Shown here: piece by piece, positions 2,511 to 30,905 of the stretch | How the letters are laid out: each line of letters opens with the position of its first letter | How positions within the stretch are numbered: position 1 is the stretch's first letter | Origin: a virus | Strand: one strand, 5' to 3' | Virus genome (UHGV): UHGV-0305615 | DNA: 30,965 nucleotides | Position numbers and translations under genes: made by a program | Notes under the pieces: model-generated | Database searches by the model: none | Told to the model about the DNA's origin: nothing | What the model saw: only the letters and a program-made list of their open reading frames with translations

Positions 2511-3392
2511 TTACATAGATGTTTCGTTTAATTCTTCCCGACGAACGCTGTAAACGTCGGTGGCTTTTGCCAGCAGTTCGTCATCATCTGAAAGTTTTTG
2601 TGCAATGTATTTGTAAGCCTTATCCAGTTCGGAGACAGTGCTGTAATTCATCGCTGCGCTGGTAAAGGCCATCAGCATTTCTTCTGGATCACGGCTATCC
2701 GCTTTACGCGTTTGCTCATCATGCTTTTTCACTGGTTTAGCGTTGATCAGACTGTTCATTCCCGCAGCAGTAGTCGTTTGCGGAGTAATGTCTCGCTCAA
2801 CGCGCGGTGCCGTTTCCTGTAATTCGTCAGGGGTGTAAACACCGAGAAGCACATCAGGAGCGTGCAGGCGAGCCCATCGTTTCGTGCAAAGATAGGCAAG
2901 CTGCTGGCGCGGATCCTGTTCCCACAATGGAGAGTTACGCACTCCGGCTTGCGCCATACTGATGGTAAGCTCACGGGGTTCTGCTTCTCCTTTAAGAACT
3001 GCTGACACAGTTACCGTCAGATTCGGTGATTTATCTGTTTTGCCGTTAACATTCGACCAGTCACCGCTCCAGCGATAATTCAGGCGTGTCGCTAGCAGGC
3101 TGGAAGAGGATACGACCGCGTTTACCAACTGTGCTTCGTAGCCTAACGTTCCGTTTACCACATGCGTTTTCTGCGCCACGGCGAAAGGGTTCATTCCCCA
3201 CTGTGCCGCCTGCATGGTCACCGCCAGACAATCGGCAGGTTTGCCTTCAAGATGTTTCGGTACAGTCGCTTTGCTTTGTGACATCAACTCCGCGAAACGC
3301 ACCAGTTGATTCATGCCCTCGGGGCTGAAGATTGCCGCAGCAGTGCCTACAGTTGCGCCTGGTTGTGATGTGATTGCGATATCATTGCTCAT
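2511..3392 (-). CDS. Single-strand annealing protein (RecT/Red-beta-like recombinase)
   Basis: 293 aa; start overlaps stop of the upstream exonuclease gene by 4 nt (3389-3392); family assigned mainly from synteny with the nuclease plus general sequence character. Confidence 0.65.
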   Translation of the reverse strand: MSNDIAITSQPGATVGTAAAIFSPEGMNQLVRFAELMSQSKATVPKHLEGKPADCLAVTMQAAQWGMNPFAVAQKTHVVNGTLGYEAQLVNAVVSSSSLLATRLNYRWSGDWSNVNGKTDKSPNLTVTVSAVLKGEAEPRELTISMAQAGVRNSPLWEQDPRQQLAYLCTKRWARLHAPDVLLGVYTPDELQETAPRVERDITPQTTTAAGMNSLINAKPVKKHDEQTRKADSRDPEEMLMAFTSAAMNYSTVSELDKAYKYIAQKLSDDDELLAKATDVYSVRREELNETSM

Positions 3393-4661: not shown

Positions 4662-4680
4662 AACTTGTTACCTCGGTCGG

Positions 4681-4695
4681 TTACCGTTGAGGTAA
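4681..4695. promoter_or_regulatory. Predicted operator (dyad TTACCGTTGAGGTAA), leftward early promoter region
   Basis: Exact TTACC-N5-GGTAA dyad just downstream of a leftward TTGACA -35 (rc of 4718-4723). Confidence 0.5.
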
Positions 4696-4742
4696 TGATT
4701 ATGCGTATCTGGTTTGATGTCAATAGATATGAGTTAAAAAAA

Positions 4743-4757
4743 TTACCCATAAGGTAA
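4743..4757. promoter_or_regulatory. Predicted operator (dyad TTACCCATAAGGTAA)
   Basis: Exact TTACC-N5-GGTAA dyad between repressor-gene terminator and leftward promoter. Confidence 0.5.
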
Positions 4758-4769
4758 TCTTGTTGGTAA

Positions 4770-5399: not shown

Positions 5400-5454
5400 T
5401 TTCTGGAAAATCGCCTCATATATGAATCAGTAGATGATTCAATTTAAAGCAATA

Positions 5455-5469
5455 TTACCCAACAGGTAA
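5455..5469. promoter_or_regulatory. Predicted operator (dyad TTACCCAACAGGTAA) in repressor/cro intergenic region
   Basis: Exact TTACC-N5-GGTAA dyad. Confidence 0.55.
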
Positions 5470-5502
5470 ATGCACCTCATAGGTAACTATCCTTGATTTT
5501 TG

Positions 5503-5829: not shown

Positions 5830-5934
5830 ATATCTATTCGTACCTCAAAGGTAATAAAAAACCAAATCTGGTTGATCTTTTTTTTGTGTCAGCACAAAAT
5901 GACCGTAATCCCAATACTAATAACAGGGCTTACC

Positions 5935-7724: not shown

Positions 7725-7761
7725 TACCAGCGCGATAGCGCATTTTTTTACGTCTTGATAA

Positions 7762-7776
7762 TTACCTGTTGGGTAA
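7762..7776. promoter_or_regulatory. Predicted operator (dyad TTACCTGTTGGGTAA) filling a promoter spacer
   Basis: Exact dyad lying between TTGATA (7755-7760) and TAAAAT (7777-7782). Confidence 0.55.
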
Positions 7777-7823
7777 TAAAATATTCTAAAATCTATTGAT
7801 TTCGTGTATTATGTGGTTTTTAA

Positions 7824-7838
7824 TTACCTTAGGGGTAA
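7824..7838. promoter_or_regulatory. Predicted operator (dyad TTACCTTAGGGGTAA) 4 nt upstream of ATG 7842
   Basis: Exact dyad. Confidence 0.5.
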
Positions 7839-7841
7839 ATC

Positions 7842-9574: not shown

Positions 9575-9848
9575 CCTGCAACTTGCCGTCAAAGGTGAAT
9601 ACTTCGATGCCATGATTCGCGGAGAGAAAACGGAAGAGTATCGCCTGTGTAATGACTACTGGAATAAGCGAATTATGTTCCGGGAGTATGACCGCCTGAT
9701 TATCACAAAGGGATATCCGAAGCGTGACGATTCCAGCCGCAGAATTGACGTTCCGTATGGCGGCTATGAAATCAAGACAATCACACATCCGCACTTCGGC
9801 GATAAACCGGTAAAGGTGTACGCGATAAAGGTGAATATTGATGGCTAA
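9567..9848 (+). CDS. Hypothetical protein (93 aa), possible ASCH/PUA-like fold
   Basis: GTG 9567 with AAGGGG RBS, overlapping previous stop; fold guess from LAVKGEYFDAMIRGEKTEEYR pattern only. Confidence 0.45.
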   Translation: MANLQLAVKGEYFDAMIRGEKTEEYRLCNDYWNKRIMFREYDRLIITKGYPKRDDSSRRIDVPYGGYEIKTITHPHFGDKPVKVYAIKVNIDG

Positions 9849-10179
9849 ATCAGCAGCAGAGCGCAAAGCCGCTCAGAGAGCCAGACAAGCTGCATCCGGT
9901 GTACGTAAGCTGGAGATTGTGCTGGATGCTCAGGAAATTGAAATGCTGGAGCGTAGCTGTGCCACGCGTCGCCCCGGGCGTGCGCCTTACGAATTTGGTG
10001 AGTATATAGCGTTACTGATCCGCCAGGATGATGCACGCGTGCACGGGCGTATAAAATCGATCAGCAGAAAACGTTGCGGTAAGTGCGGCGAGAGAGTTCC
10101 TGTGAATTCATGCCCGTGTAATGGTGACTCGCAATGCTGGGTGACTAAAGGCTGGCATGAAACGAAATTAATAGTGTGA
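9841..10179 (+). CDS. Hypothetical protein (112 aa): basic N-terminus plus C-terminal zinc ribbon
   Basis: ATG 9841 with AAAGGTGAA RBS; CGKCGERVPVNSCPCNG; stop codon lies inside the 12-bp palindrome. Confidence 0.55.
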   Translation: MAKSAAERKAAQRARQAASGVRKLEIVLDAQEIEMLERSCATRRPGRAPYEFGEYIALLIRQDDARVHGRIKSISRKRCGKCGERVPVNSCPCNGDSQCWVTKGWHETKLIV

Positions 10180-10187
10180 CATGTCAC
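10176..10187. repeat. Perfect 12-bp palindrome GTGACATGTCAC (copy 1 of 3)
   Basis: Exact sequence; identical copies at 12627-12638 and 29977-29988. Confidence 0.6.
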
Positions 10188-10196
10188 GAAGGTGTT

Positions 10197-10409
10197 ATGC
10201 CAAAAATACGCTACGACCTTGAAGATATGAGAGATAACTCAGCAAATTTTCCGAAAGAGGTTAAATTTCTCATGCATAAGTATGGTTGCGCTAGGAGGGA
10301 TATAGTTATCGACAGTCAGCACCCTTGCGGCGAGGATGTAATTTTCATTCGCGGTAAATGGGAAGGGTATCTTGACGAGAGTTTTTACGATGAATTTGAT
10401 GGACTTTGA
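10197..10409 (+). CDS. Hypothetical small protein (70 aa)
   Basis: ATG 10197 within track ORF 10176..10409; GAAGG upstream with short spacing. Confidence 0.4.
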   Translation: MPKIRYDLEDMRDNSANFPKEVKFLMHKYGCARRDIVIDSQHPCGEDVIFIRGKWEGYLDESFYDEFDGL

Positions 10410-10414
10410 ATACT

Positions 10415-10440
10415 GCCGCCAACTATGGCGGCTTTATTTT
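10415..10440 (+). terminator. Rho-independent terminator separating early genes from packaging genes
   Basis: GCCGCC-AACTAT-GGCGGC followed by TTTATTTT. Confidence 0.65.
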
Positions 10441-10451
10441 GCATGGTACTA

Positions 10452-10466
10452 TTACCAAAACGGTAA
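10452..10466. promoter_or_regulatory. Predicted operator (dyad TTACCAAAACGGTAA) upstream of TerS
   Basis: Exact dyad between terminator and TerS start; extra TTACC half-site at 10469-10473. Confidence 0.5.
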
Positions 10467-10483
10467 CTATTACCACGGTGGTT

Positions 10484-11080
10484 ATGATGCCTGCTGAACC
10501 TAAAACCTATAAACGCAAATCAACGCAATTTAAGCCACTAACAGCAATGCAGGAGGCTTATTGCCAGTCATACATCAAAACGCCTGAAAACCAGACTCAG
10601 GCAGCGATTAACGCAGGATTCTCCCCAAATACAGCGGCAGTTAAAGCCAGTGTCATGATGCGCGATGAACGCATTCAAAAACGGATTGCCGAGTTGATGG
10701 AGGAGCGCAACAAACGAATGCGCGTCAGTGCTGATTACGTTCTCATGCGCCTGGTGGAGATCGACCAGATGGACGTGATCGACATCCTCAACGACGATGG
10801 GAGCCTTAAGCCAATCCGCGAGTGGCCGAAAATCTGGCGCACTACGCTTAGTGGCTTTGATCTGTCATCGACCATCATGAACATGAACGAGGATTCGATA
10901 GAGACAATCCTCAAAAAAATTAAATGGCCTGACAAGGTGAAGAACCTCGAACTGATTGGTAAGCACGTCGACGTCAACGCATTCAAAGAACGCCTGGATG
11001 TTAATGTGAATGTGACAATTGCTGATCGCATAGCGGCAGCCAGGAAGAGACTGAAAGAACGTCAGGATGGCAATCAGTGA
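10484..11080 (+). CDS. Terminase small subunit
   Basis: Track ORF 10406..11080 trimmed to ATG 10484 because the 5' part contains the terminator and operator; family guess from sequence character and position before TerL. Confidence 0.65.
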   Translation: MMPAEPKTYKRKSTQFKPLTAMQEAYCQSYIKTPENQTQAAINAGFSPNTAAVKASVMMRDERIQKRIAELMEERNKRMRVSADYVLMRLVEIDQMDVIDILNDDGSLKPIREWPKIWRTTLSGFDLSSTIMNMNEDSIETILKKIKWPDKVKNLELIGKHVDVNAFKERLDVNVNVTIADRIAAARKRLKERQDGNQ

Positions 11081-12596: not shown

Positions 12597-12626
12597 AAAC
12601 AAAGCCAGCTCATCGGCTGGCTGTTT
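12597..12626. terminator. Bidirectional rho-independent terminator between convergent TerL and minus-strand ORF
   Basis: GCCAGC-TCATCG-GCTGGC hairpin (12604-12621) flanked by an A-run upstream and TGTTT downstream. Confidence 0.5.
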
Positions 12627-12638
12627 GTGACATGTCAC
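12627..12638. repeat. Perfect 12-bp palindrome GTGACATGTCAC (copy 2 of 3)
   Basis: Exact sequence. Confidence 0.6.
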
Positions 12639-12642
12639 GGTG

Positions 12643-13017
12643 TTACTTAATGGCATCAAATCCAGCGTTGATGGCTTCCGCAATATTGATGGCGCTTGTT
12701 TTATCGAAGTGCCCATTCTGAATAAGCGCCGCATGCAGGCATTGTAACTTCATGTTGTATAAGTGTTCGCTCATGTAATCATTATCACGTTTTTCCATTT
12801 CAGAATGTTGTGCTGTTATCCAGTCATGGAACGTAACGCTAGTACCATGGTCTTCGCTAAGAGTTAACCCGGCCAGTCCCTCACTCTGAATTACTTCGTA
12901 ATGCATTTCATTACCAGCAAAAACGCCATAAAAAACGCAGTCTTCAGCCTGAACGATACGAGAATATTTTAATGGCCATTCATTTAGATACTTAGCCAAC
13001 ATATCAATTGTTTTCAT
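12643..13017 (-). CDS. Hypothetical protein (124 aa), minus-strand insert between TerL and portal
   Basis: Complete ORF with AAGGTGAG RBS; lower GC than flanks; no recognised domain. Confidence 0.55.
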   Translation of the reverse strand: MKTIDMLAKYLNEWPLKYSRIVQAEDCVFYGVFAGNEMHYEVIQSEGLAGLTLSEDHGTSVTFHDWITAQHSEMEKRDNDYMSEHLYNMKLQCLHAALIQNGHFDKTSAINIAEAINAGFDAIK

Positions 13018-13215: not shown

Positions 13216-13292
13216 TGGCGTGGCATGCAGGATTCGAACCTGCGACCAACCGCTTAGAAGGCGGTTGCTCTGTCCGACTGAGCTAATGCCAC
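13216..13292 (-). tRNA. tRNA-Arg (anticodon UCU)
   Basis: 77-nt minus-strand sequence GTGGCATTAGCTCAGTCGGACAGAGCAACCGCCTTCTAAGCGGTTGGTCGCAGGTTCGAATCCTGCATGCCACGCCA folds as a cloverleaf: 7-bp acceptor stem, GCTC/GAGC D-stem, ACCGC/GCGGT anticodon stem with loop CTTCTAA, GCAGG/CCTGC T-stem with TTCGAAT loop, encoded CCA. Confidence 0.9.
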
Positions 13293-13614
13293 AACGCTGA
13301 GAGCACTTAGCCTGTTAAGGCACCACACTTTGTCGCGGCTCCATAAATGCTCTCATCGTTGTACCCTCGTCTCTTCCGAGGCGTCACACCGAATCGCCGG
13401 GATGGTGAATCCCCGTGCGCGGAATAAAACCGCTCGACTTGCACATTCCGGCTACCTGGTTCGTTTGCCCGAGCAAGGGAGGGTGCCCCTTAAACGTATC
13501 CAGACCGCTATCGTCGCATGTGCCATACGCCGTACTGCTCAAAATAAAAGCTCACTCCACCTGTTCAATTTAACGACAAGCCAGTCAGGTTAGTAACCGG
13601 AATGAACTTTTTGG

Positions 13615-13629
13615 TTACCTGAAAGGTAA
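13615..13629. promoter_or_regulatory. Predicted operator (dyad TTACCTGAAAGGTAA) between tRNA leader and virion genes
   Basis: Exact dyad; a leftward TTGACA -35 (rc of 13646-13651) lies 17 bp away. Confidence 0.5.
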
Positions 13630-13719
13630 TAATTCGTGCGTTAAATGTCAACAGTCTACGATAAATAAATCATATGTGGTTAAATTGGTAATAATTTAAT
13701 TGCGTACGGAGTCATTGAT

Positions 13720-15620: not shown

Positions 15621-15913
15621 CAGATTACGAAGACGATCAACTGAAAGAAGAAAACGCCCGTAAGCAACGTGACATGGCACAGCGTGAAATTGATGACATT
15701 CGCTTTGTCATGAGCAGTGAACAGGGGCGTCGCGTTGTCTGGTCGGTGCTGGAGAAAGGCCGGGTGTTTTCCGCTATCTCTCCGATGGATGCTATGGCAA
15801 TGGCATTTAATGAGGGGCAACGCAATCTGGCGCTGGAACTGTTTCAGCGCGTTATGGCGCATTGCCCTGAACAGTATTTGAAGATGGCCAAAGAGGCCAG
15901 TGAACAGGAGTGA
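15617..15913 (+). CDS. Hypothetical head-module protein (98 aa)
   Basis: Complete ORF overlapping the portal stop. Confidence 0.55.
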   Translation: MTDYEDDQLKEENARKQRDMAQREIDDIRFVMSSEQGRRVVWSVLEKGRVFSAISPMDAMAMAFNEGQRNLALELFQRVMAHCPEQYLKMAKEASEQE

Positions 15914-29513: not shown

Positions 29514-29525
29514 TAGGTGACCTTT

Positions 29526-29975
29526 ATGTTCAAGAAGATGATCAACAGATTAATCGGTGGTAAGGAGGTTAGCAATAAAATTCAACCTCTTATCTTTAAG
29601 GATAACTTTTCAGCTTTTGAGTATGCGTGTAAGTATCTTGACACAAGCCTTTCAGCCAATAAACCAATGCCAGCCATCATCATACCTGGTCCCAGTGGGG
29701 AACAGCCAGTTTTGCTAGATTCTGGAAGACAAAGGGCAATGCTGAAGGTGTGCTCAGCTGATGGTGGATTTTTTGTTATTGCCGATTCATCTTACAGCAA
29801 AGGACCAAAGCTGAGGATTGGTGATCTTGTTGCTTGGTTGCCTGTGAGTTATGCCGAAGAATTAACGGATAAAATAGAAGATCCTCGCTCCGCTATGGTT
29901 GGCTTTATATTGGGAACCATTCATCCTGAACTAACATCTACTGGCTGGAAGGGTAAAGAAAGATTTCGCAAGTAG
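29526..29975 (+). CDS. Hypothetical cytoplasmic protein (149 aa), AT-rich cargo gene
   Basis: ATG 29526 with AGGTGA RBS (track start 29517 is GTG); divergent from the secreted-protein gene with only ~12 bp between starts. Confidence 0.5.
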   Translation: MFKKMINRLIGGKEVSNKIQPLIFKDNFSAFEYACKYLDTSLSANKPMPAIIIPGPSGEQPVLLDSGRQRAMLKVCSADGGFFVIADSSYSKGPKLRIGDLVAWLPVSYAEELTDKIEDPRSAMVGFILGTIHPELTSTGWKGKERFRK

Positions 29976-29976
29976 C

Positions 29977-29988
29977 GTGACATGTCAC
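29977..29988. repeat. Perfect 12-bp palindrome GTGACATGTCAC (copy 3 of 3)
   Basis: Exact sequence, 1 nt after the TAG of the 149-aa gene. Confidence 0.6.
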
Positions 29989-30013
29989 AGGCCGCTTTCG
30001 CGGCCTTGTTTTT
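29989..30013 (+). terminator. Rho-independent terminator
   Basis: AGGCCGC-TTTC-GCGGCCT hairpin followed by TTGTTTTT. Confidence 0.6.
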
Positions 30014-30793: not shown

Positions 30794-30819
30794 GTTTCCC
30801 CCTCATGTAAACTCTCGGT

Positions 30820-30834
30820 TTACCTTTGGGGTAA
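30820..30834. promoter_or_regulatory. Predicted operator (dyad TTACCTTTGGGGTAA) abutting the -10 of the membrane-operon promoter
   Basis: Exact dyad; minus-strand promoter TTGCAG (rc of 30857-30862), 17-bp spacer, TACTAT (rc of 30834-30839). Confidence 0.5.
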
Positions 30835-30905
30835 TAGTACTCTATTCACCCCCAGTCTGCAATCTGTACAGAATTATTTAAAGGCACGTCCCTGTGCCGC
30901 CGCCG

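Follow-up and report, generated by a model that had tools for sequence, protein, structure and literature searches.

In the virus genome UHGV-0305615, a stretch of 30,965 nucleotides (the window) that is an epsilon15/phiV10-like (Uetakevirus) prophage of Escherichia coli, the palindromic 12-mer GTGACATGTCAC stands at three operon ends, and the motif behind it, GTGAC-N2-GTCAC, is probably a recognition site on double-stranded DNA for a small zinc-ribbon protein that would read it as a symmetric dimer. This reading, held with moderate confidence, follows from the observation that the 12-mer travels with one zinc-ribbon gene through many unrelated temperate phages, which makes the encoded protein its most likely binder; a protein at these sites probably controls transcription. 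The sequence finding itself is robust and points to a phage regulator with dispersed recognition sites.

Exact copies of GTGACATGTCAC occur exactly three times in the window, at 10176-10187 (site A), 12627-12638 (site B) and 29977-29988 (site C), all of them with GTGAC and GTCAC arms separated by exactly 2 bp. This exact-match count agrees with the preliminary description of this DNA, which had reported three identical palindrome copies at these positions and judged them unexpected by chance (roughly 1e-5 given one copy). Base composition bears out that judgement, with 0.0018 exact copies expected in 30,965 bases, a probability of about 1e-9 for at least three copies, and one of about 1.7e-6 for at least two further copies once one is given. 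The window holds seven distinct perfect 12-bp palindromes, and GTGACATGTCAC alone is repeated. A one-mismatch copy, GTGACATGGCAC, lies within coding sequence at 15669-15680; it is also found in phiV10, is missing from epsilon15 and SPN1S, and is probably not a functional site.

Each of the three copies, in the direction of the gene that ends there, lies between a stop codon and an intrinsic terminator, the terminators of the window having been placed by a consensus scan. Site A contains the TGA stop (10177-10179) of the gene for the candidate binder, a 112-aa zinc-ribbon protein of the epsilon15 gp49/N15 gp46 family (phrog_536) encoded on the plus strand at 9841..10179, and the next plus-strand terminator, which ends the early-right unit, is found 227 nt downstream at 10415..10432. 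Site B is flanked by the stop of TerL (12552), which it follows by 74 nt, and by the stop (12643) of a minus-strand gene convergent with TerL; this 124-aa cargo gene (phrog_4846, 12643..13017) occupies a slot that varies among relatives, and its own terminator (12603..12622, minus strand) lies 4 nt past site B when read on the minus strand. Site C falls 1 nt past the stop codon that closes the structural operon and abuts a plus-strand terminator at 29989..30006, and the 152-aa cargo gene before it (phrog_9944, 29517..29975, plus strand) sits in a slot whose gene differs among relatives. The earlier claim that the copies stand by a stop codon and a terminator is borne out in this sense, with a 70-aa ORF inserted between the two at site A, whereas the accompanying description of the terminator at site B as bidirectional does not: it is called at 12622..12603 on the minus strand only, so it is oriented for the 124-aa gene and is not clearly bidirectional.

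The junctions marked in this way, from the early-right genes to TerS/TerL, from TerL to portal, and from the structural genes to the tailspike, separate successive rightward units, and at each of them a single 12-mer and a single terminator are accompanied by one or two repressor operators. Operators of the epsilon15 group read ATTACC-N5-GGTAAT and are annotated in the epsilon15 record, including the equivalent site before TerS. The window contains 11 operators of this type against 0.8 expected (4680-4758, 5454-5470, 5839-5855, 7761-7839, 10451-10485, 13614-13630 and 30819-30835), among them two operator-like sites (starts 10451 and 10469) directly before the probable TerS start, one that precedes the portal operon (13614..13630), and one that follows minus-strand cargo genes and precedes the next rightward unit (30819..30835). 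Since these operators are unrelated to the 12-mer, the latter is not the repressor's site. Among the three roles originally suggested for the palindrome, that of a site bound by a dimeric regulator other than the repressor fits best, because the operators differ from it and the 12-mer tracks another small protein family.

Conservation among close relatives

Epsilon15 and SPN1S (Salmonella phages), Tyrion and phiV10 share about 80% DNA identity with the window and carry the 12-mer at the homologous three junctions. Three exact copies are present in each of epsilon15 and SPN1S, one at the gp49 stop, one just past the terminator of TerL, and one where the structural operon ends, ahead of a terminator; Tyrion has two copies inside its record and one across the record junction, and phiV10 has two copies together with a one-mismatch copy at the record junction. 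The expected number of motif copies is about 0.04 per genome (epsilon15, phiV10, SPN1S). Klebsiella phage BUCT711 has sites A and C as well as extra copies elsewhere, and lacks site B, where a different gene abuts TerL. Close relatives were also retrieved from viral contigs by the protein alone; 74 of 79 have site A and 46 of 64 have site B. The search of related genomes for the 12-mer and its positions, which the preliminary description had recommended, therefore finds it kept among close relatives rather than absent from them, and it is not a sequence common at random positions, as shown by its 0 copies in lambda, P2 and P22.

Association with a zinc-ribbon gene across temperate phages

When viral contigs were scanned for a 14-mer, the commonest context was the 3' end of genes for homologues of the zinc-ribbon protein, with divergence directly after the 12-mer. 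As such a scan is motif-biased, a second set was built to remove the bias, comprising 80 loci (928 kb) from one-genome-per-species bacterial assemblies picked solely by alignment of the family protein. In these loci GTGAC-N2-GTCAC occurs 84 times against 0.83 expected, and palindromes from permuted half-sites reach no more than 5; spacers of 1, 3, 5 and 7 give 0 sites, and spacers of 0, 4 and 6 give 3, 1 and 3, respectively. The centre is AT in 68 of the 84 sites and GC, GT, AC, CT or AG in the others. At least one site is held by 73 of the 80 loci, and the motif is at or beside the homologue's stop codon in 52, overlapping it in 37 and lying within -25..+30 nt in 15 more. Hosts of these loci include Citrobacter, Klebsiella, Pantoea, Erwinia, Xenorhabdus, Providencia, Pectobacterium, Serratia and Yersinia, and among the backbones are Uetakevirus-like, P2-like (with the gene after replication gene A) and lambdoid ones and small integrative elements beside xis/int.

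Individual phages present the same pairing. In N15, gp46 is 35% identical to the zinc-ribbon protein and GTGACTGGTCAC overlaps its stop codon; of two further copies with the same centre, one stands between gene 33 and a terminator and the other within repA. The exact 12-mer is found three times in Pectobacterium phage ZF40, 3 nt past the homologue's stop, inside a CII-like gene and inside an early-left gene, and Vibrio phage K308, whose protein is 31% identical, also has three, two of them exactly 31 nt upstream of start codons, one being that of TerS. Lambda, P2 and P22 lack a homologue and contain no site at all, even though isolated half-sites number 56-93 in each. With all epsilon15 ORFs compared, gp49 is the sole one that has homologues in N15, ZF40 and K308 together. 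Taken as a whole, the pattern makes it reasonably likely that gene and site are a linked module in temperate phages of podo-, myo- and siphovirus type and that the further copies are the small target set of the protein.

Two other contexts of the sequence were encountered. Iteron-like arrays of GTGACR / YGTCAC(G) half-sites surround the exact 12-mer in unrelated viral contigs (L024, about 10780-10900; L043, about 740-800; L053, about 3130-3190; L072, about 1900-1960; L110, about 10820-10900), with no zinc-ribbon homologue in the sequence inspected around them, and another protein, with a half-site of similar sequence, may be at work there. In six loci (L012, L017, L022, L074, L115 and L124) the opening codons of a Q-type antiterminator gene (ATG CGT GAC ATG TCA C, encoding MRDMSQ...) share bases with the 12-mer; as these loci came from the motif-biased scan, the overlap may be a coding coincidence. 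L074 encodes a zinc-ribbon homologue as well.

The protein itself consists of a conserved arginine-rich N-terminal helix, a middle segment whose sequence suggests a strand-helix-helix pattern, and a C-terminal cysteine cluster. Its family comprises 209 cluster representatives at 50% identity, whose members are named 'hypothetical' or given an unverified regulator label; the PHROGs label for phrog_536, 'transcriptional regulator', is likewise an annotation and not an experiment. Structure models of the protein are of low confidence, and no homology to the Q family was found in Pfam, NCBIfam or PDB. A 'gp46' detected in a telomere-phage lysogen (PMC12042878) proved to be a CB-like repressor and not a homologue of N15 gp46.

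Placement of the sites and constraint at the DNA level

Sites are concentrated at gene ends. In the 80 loci, 66 of the 84 (79%) fall between -12 and +40 nt relative to a long ORF's stop, compared with 17% for random positions, and a terminator-like hairpin is found no more than 45 nt from 33 of 104 sites (32%), compared with 7% for random positions. What follows the copy at the gene's own stop (n=54) is a terminator in 18 cases, a promoter with a LexA box in 12, and in 19 a short hairpin and a ribosome-binding site followed by a small gene that looks excisionase-like in sequence. All three arrangements place a boundary there, with the early operon on one side and a unit under separate control on the other. 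No conserved promoter was found around the 12-mer, and the sites are dispersed inside transcription units rather than placed at promoters.

Copies inside coding sequences indicate what selection acts upon. Several lambdoid phages carry the 12-mer inside CII-like genes, where none of its bases changes while the codons around it do, and the residues at the two edges vary only within what the motif permits (R or C ahead of DMS; H, Q or R behind it). That the 12-mer stays fixed while the encoded edge residues change indicates selection on nucleic acid rather than on protein.

Whether this nucleic acid is DNA or RNA is a matter of weighing. An element acting in RNA, in which the transcribed 12-mer, alone or bound by the zinc-ribbon protein, would control 3'-end stability or processing or the translation of the next gene, is unlikely, although it is the best placed of the alternatives. 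It would suit the location of every copy in a transcribed region, many of them 0-4 nt past a stop codon or directly ahead of a Shine-Dalgarno sequence and ATG (for example, the first copy in the window, the N15 gp46/gp47 gap, and the K308 copy 31 nt before TerS), as well as the helix at the N-terminus of the zinc-ribbon protein, which resembles the arginine-rich motifs of RNA-binding proteins. However, the predicted hairpin of the 12-mer is marginal (-1.2 kcal/mol, four pairs and a tetraloop), the arms are invariant without compensatory change while the centre varies, and centres that are asymmetric (the N15 sites; CT and AG, AC and GT at gene ends) point either way with respect to transcription. 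These three features together favour a symmetric protein that reads duplex DNA. Nor does the 12-mer form part of the terminators, since predicted folds build the terminator stems without it and leave it at most a separate 4-bp hairpin. The internal ATG was considered as a re-initiation codon and rejected because the centre is not conserved.

Mosaic joints and cargo genes

Alignment of relatives shows that homology between them breaks exactly at the 12-mer and that cargo genes differ on one side of each site. Flanks were counted as shared at 70% identity or more across 40 nt. By this measure site A matches 44 other sites on the left side alone and 8 on both sides, site B matches 10 on the left alone and 3 on the right alone, and site C matches 7 on the right alone. 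Such sites are conserved islands beside variable cargo, so that recombination between relatives would resolve there and produce mosaic joints passively; serving as a crossover point for cargo exchange thus looks like a secondary role of the sites.

The preliminary description had also offered the palindrome as a recombination linker marking points of module exchange, and as a description of where homology ends this is correct. As the whole story, a short border sequence kept by exchanges without any binding protein is very unlikely. It would account for the homology breaks and for the one-sided differences in cargo, but not for the strict spacing and arms across phages whose partner proteins are only 31-35% identical, for the tie of presence and absence to one gene, or for copies that stay constant inside coding sequences, where amino acids vary and no mosaic break is found.

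Considered as known defence genes, the cargo genes gave no PADLOC match. In many relatives a LexA-box promoter (CTGT-N8-ACAG) follows the 12-mer at the gene's stop, as in BUCT711 (L005, about 360-430), in L007, L011, L025, L036, L126, L127, L133 and L134, in the P2-like L155, L158, L164, L200, L201 and L203, and in L213 (about 8640). This arrangement suggests SOS control of the gene in that cargo slot, which may encode an antirepressor like Tum of phage 186. The idea that the 12-mer is an activator site for these promoters was discarded, as its distance from them varies from 2 to about 60 nt.

Host-protein, packaging and other explanations

A further possibility is that the sequence is the site of a host protein, either a matS-like site for MatP, the organiser of the Ter macrodomain, or a site for SlmA. 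Motif-carrying phages infect Enterobacterales and Vibrio, and these hosts encode MatP. The arms of the 12-mer are identical to those of the 13-bp matS consensus, GTGACRNYGTCAC (PMC6907758), and K308 also has one true matS-type 13-mer, GTGACACCGTCAC (L207, 19491-19503). Against this, the spacer is strictly 2, with 0 sites of the matS spacing of 3 in 928 kb, the motif is absent from lambda, P2 and P22 of the same hosts, and its occurrence tracks a phage gene and not the host, which leaves this explanation highly improbable.

An equally slim chance attaches to a packaging signal, that is, a pac or terminase recognition site or an accessory to it, even though sites A and B bracket TerS-TerL, one K308 site is 31 nt before TerS, and Yersinia P2-like prophages have a cluster of related sites beside the 3' end of the portal gene, the position of cos in P2. 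Three dispersed copies per genome do not suit such a signal, the N15 and ZF40 sites are far from cos or terminase genes, the site follows replication gene A in most P2-like prophages, and many close relatives lack site B. The processing or packaging signal put forward in the preliminary description consequently finds no specific support, the RNA hairpin being weak as well. The Yersinia cluster (L199, 9095-9180; also L197, L205 and L105) comprises GTGACATGGCAC, GTGACGTGTCAC and GTGACTGACAC in an AT-rich gap. A restriction or methylation site explains neither the placement of the motif nor its tie to one gene.

Proposed mode of action and points against it

With the 12-mer taken as the binding site of the zinc-ribbon protein, a mode of action can be outlined. 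The protein would be made as the last product of the early-right operon, its dimer would recognise the fixed 5-bp arms at the strict 2-bp spacing while tolerating changes in the centre, and once bound it would govern the behaviour of RNA polymerase at operon ends. It might act as a boundary or roadblock, reinforcing termination and insulating neighbouring units and cargo genes from one another, or it might instead allow short-range read-through (antitermination). The boundary role is favoured because it fits all backbones, including the P2-like ones, in which read-through has no evident purpose. In epsilon15-like phages, by analogy with lambda, read-through is nevertheless attractive, since the gene occupies the position of Q in lambda and the late junctions show no consensus-like sigma-70 promoter.

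In its broadest form, which is offered tentatively and is more doubtful than the binding itself, the proposal is that of a widespread and unrecognised module in which a zinc-ribbon protein of about 110 aa and its 12-bp palindromic sites set operon boundaries, by stopping polymerase or licensing read-through at the ends of the early, terminase and structural units, independently of the main lysis-lysogeny and late-gene regulators. Such a module would be common to epsilon15-like podoviruses, P2-like myoviruses, N15-like telomere phages and lambdoid phages, and its sites would double as fixed joints for swaps of cargo (moron or defence) genes.

Several observations weigh against the zinc-ribbon protein as the binder at operon ends. 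No DNA-binding domain could be recognised in the protein, with no significant Pfam match and no NCBIfam or PDB sequence match, and hhalign comparison with MatP, omega and CopG returned nothing; as no database or fold search confirms a DNA-binding fold, binding is inferred from co-occurrence alone. Seven of the 80 homologue loci contain no site, and a very distant homologue (30% identical) in an Aeromonas phage has no motif within the 9 kb read. The complete P2-like Yersinia phage vB_YenM_56.17 (L213, 8468-8520) has a single perfect site, at the homologue's stop, which means that three per genome is no rule; an imperfect site follows the perfect one by 25 nt. Site B has a single point change in 6 of the 64 close relatives and is replaced with terminator and cargo in 12, so that in these 18 genomes at least this copy is evidently dispensable. 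Contexts are also mixed: some sites precede terminators at 3' ends, and others occupy short gaps ahead of a ribosome-binding site, 5' leaders (K308) or the interior of coding sequences (CII-like genes, N15 repA), a range that no one transcriptional mechanism accommodates.

Other features of the window

Between site A and the early-right terminator, a 70-aa ORF (phrog_1541, 10197..10409, plus strand) is inserted. Epsilon15 has neither the ORF nor a remnant in this slot, and phiV10 and several other relatives have only an 8-codon remnant (M-x-D-E-F-D-G-F-stop). The longest TerS ORF, whose start is also annotated in phiV10, begins with TTG at 10406; this start would put the terminator and both operators within the TerS coding sequence. 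Translation probably begins at the ATG near 10486, where epsilon15 has its annotated start. A tRNA-Arg gene (anticodon TCT) also lies among the cargo that separates TerL from the portal operon, on the minus strand at 13216-13292 and upstream of the 124-aa gene. Among the repressor operators, the one at 7761 occupies the spacer of a good sigma-70 promoter (TTGATA-16-TAAAAT), and those at 7823 and 10469 end 2-3 nt upstream of an ATG and so overlap the ribosome-binding site. Two further assignments were examined for the 12-mer. As a promoter element (-35 GTGACA with a -10 at 17 nt), it fits epsilon15-type copies only, and neither the window nor copies B and C. A Q/qut-type feature, meaning a site within a late promoter and then a terminator, was not found: a terminator follows sites A and C, but the -35/-10 pair is not conserved.

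Comparison with known systems

A literature search found no publication describing the 12-mer, which is also unannotated in the epsilon15 and phiV10 records; a paper on a ZX5 'regulatory protein' was considered as a source and set aside, as it deals with repressor, anti-repressor and integrase. Neither record annotates a late-gene regulator, and to our knowledge none has been described for epsilon15/phiV10-type phages, for which the present findings point to a missing piece of gene control. An uncharacterised protein family also gains a concrete and testable target sequence. Moreover, the sites mark three places in the genome where accessory genes come and go, which is useful for reading prophage cargo and for choosing safe insertion points in engineering.

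The stoperators of mycobacteriophage L5, sites of the gp71 repressor, are short sequences dispersed in transcribed regions, mostly in intergenic gaps, and are thought to stop RNA polymerase. The 12-mer is similarly dispersed inside transcription units and not at promoters, with 79% of sites just past stop codons. L5 stoperators are asymmetric and orientation-dependent, number about 30 and are bound by the immunity repressor, whereas the 12-mer is palindromic, numbers 1-4 per genome and does not match the repressor operator. The operators of epsilon15-like phages are in turn palindromic, dispersed and found at the same operon junctions, but they have another sequence and length, and their place in the order is different: the 12-mer comes first, then the terminator, then the operator immediately ahead of the next operon.

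In lambda, Q with its qut site and tR' provides another comparison, and the P22 record annotates equivalent features. In both arrangements a regulator gene (a candidate one in the case of the 12-mer) is the last of the early-right operon, a cis site and a terminator follow directly before the late genes, and the parts are inherited together. Unlike qut, the 12-mer has no conserved surrounding promoter and occurs at several sites per genome, some inside genes, and the gene-site module is also found in phages that have their own Q (ZF40, N15) or a P2 layout with Ogr-controlled late genes. The modular theory of lambdoid phage evolution describes linker or boundary sequences at the borders of homology, and the 12-mer resembles these as a short conserved sequence located exactly where homology starts or stops, beside exchangeable cargo; it differs from them in bearing the hallmarks of a protein-recognition site and in tracking one gene family.

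The MatP/matS system of E. coli is alike in that its site is also a short perfect palindrome with identical 5-bp arms (GTGAC...GTCAC), present in a few scattered copies on each replicon. MatP, which has a ribbon-helix-helix element, binds it in dimeric form. The 12-mer differs in its spacer of 2 instead of 3, with no exception, and in its location at the ends of phage genes rather than in the terminus region of the chromosome, and its candidate binder has no detectable sequence similarity to MatP. The resemblance between two sites with the same arms and spacers that differ by a single base raises the question of how such site recognition evolves.

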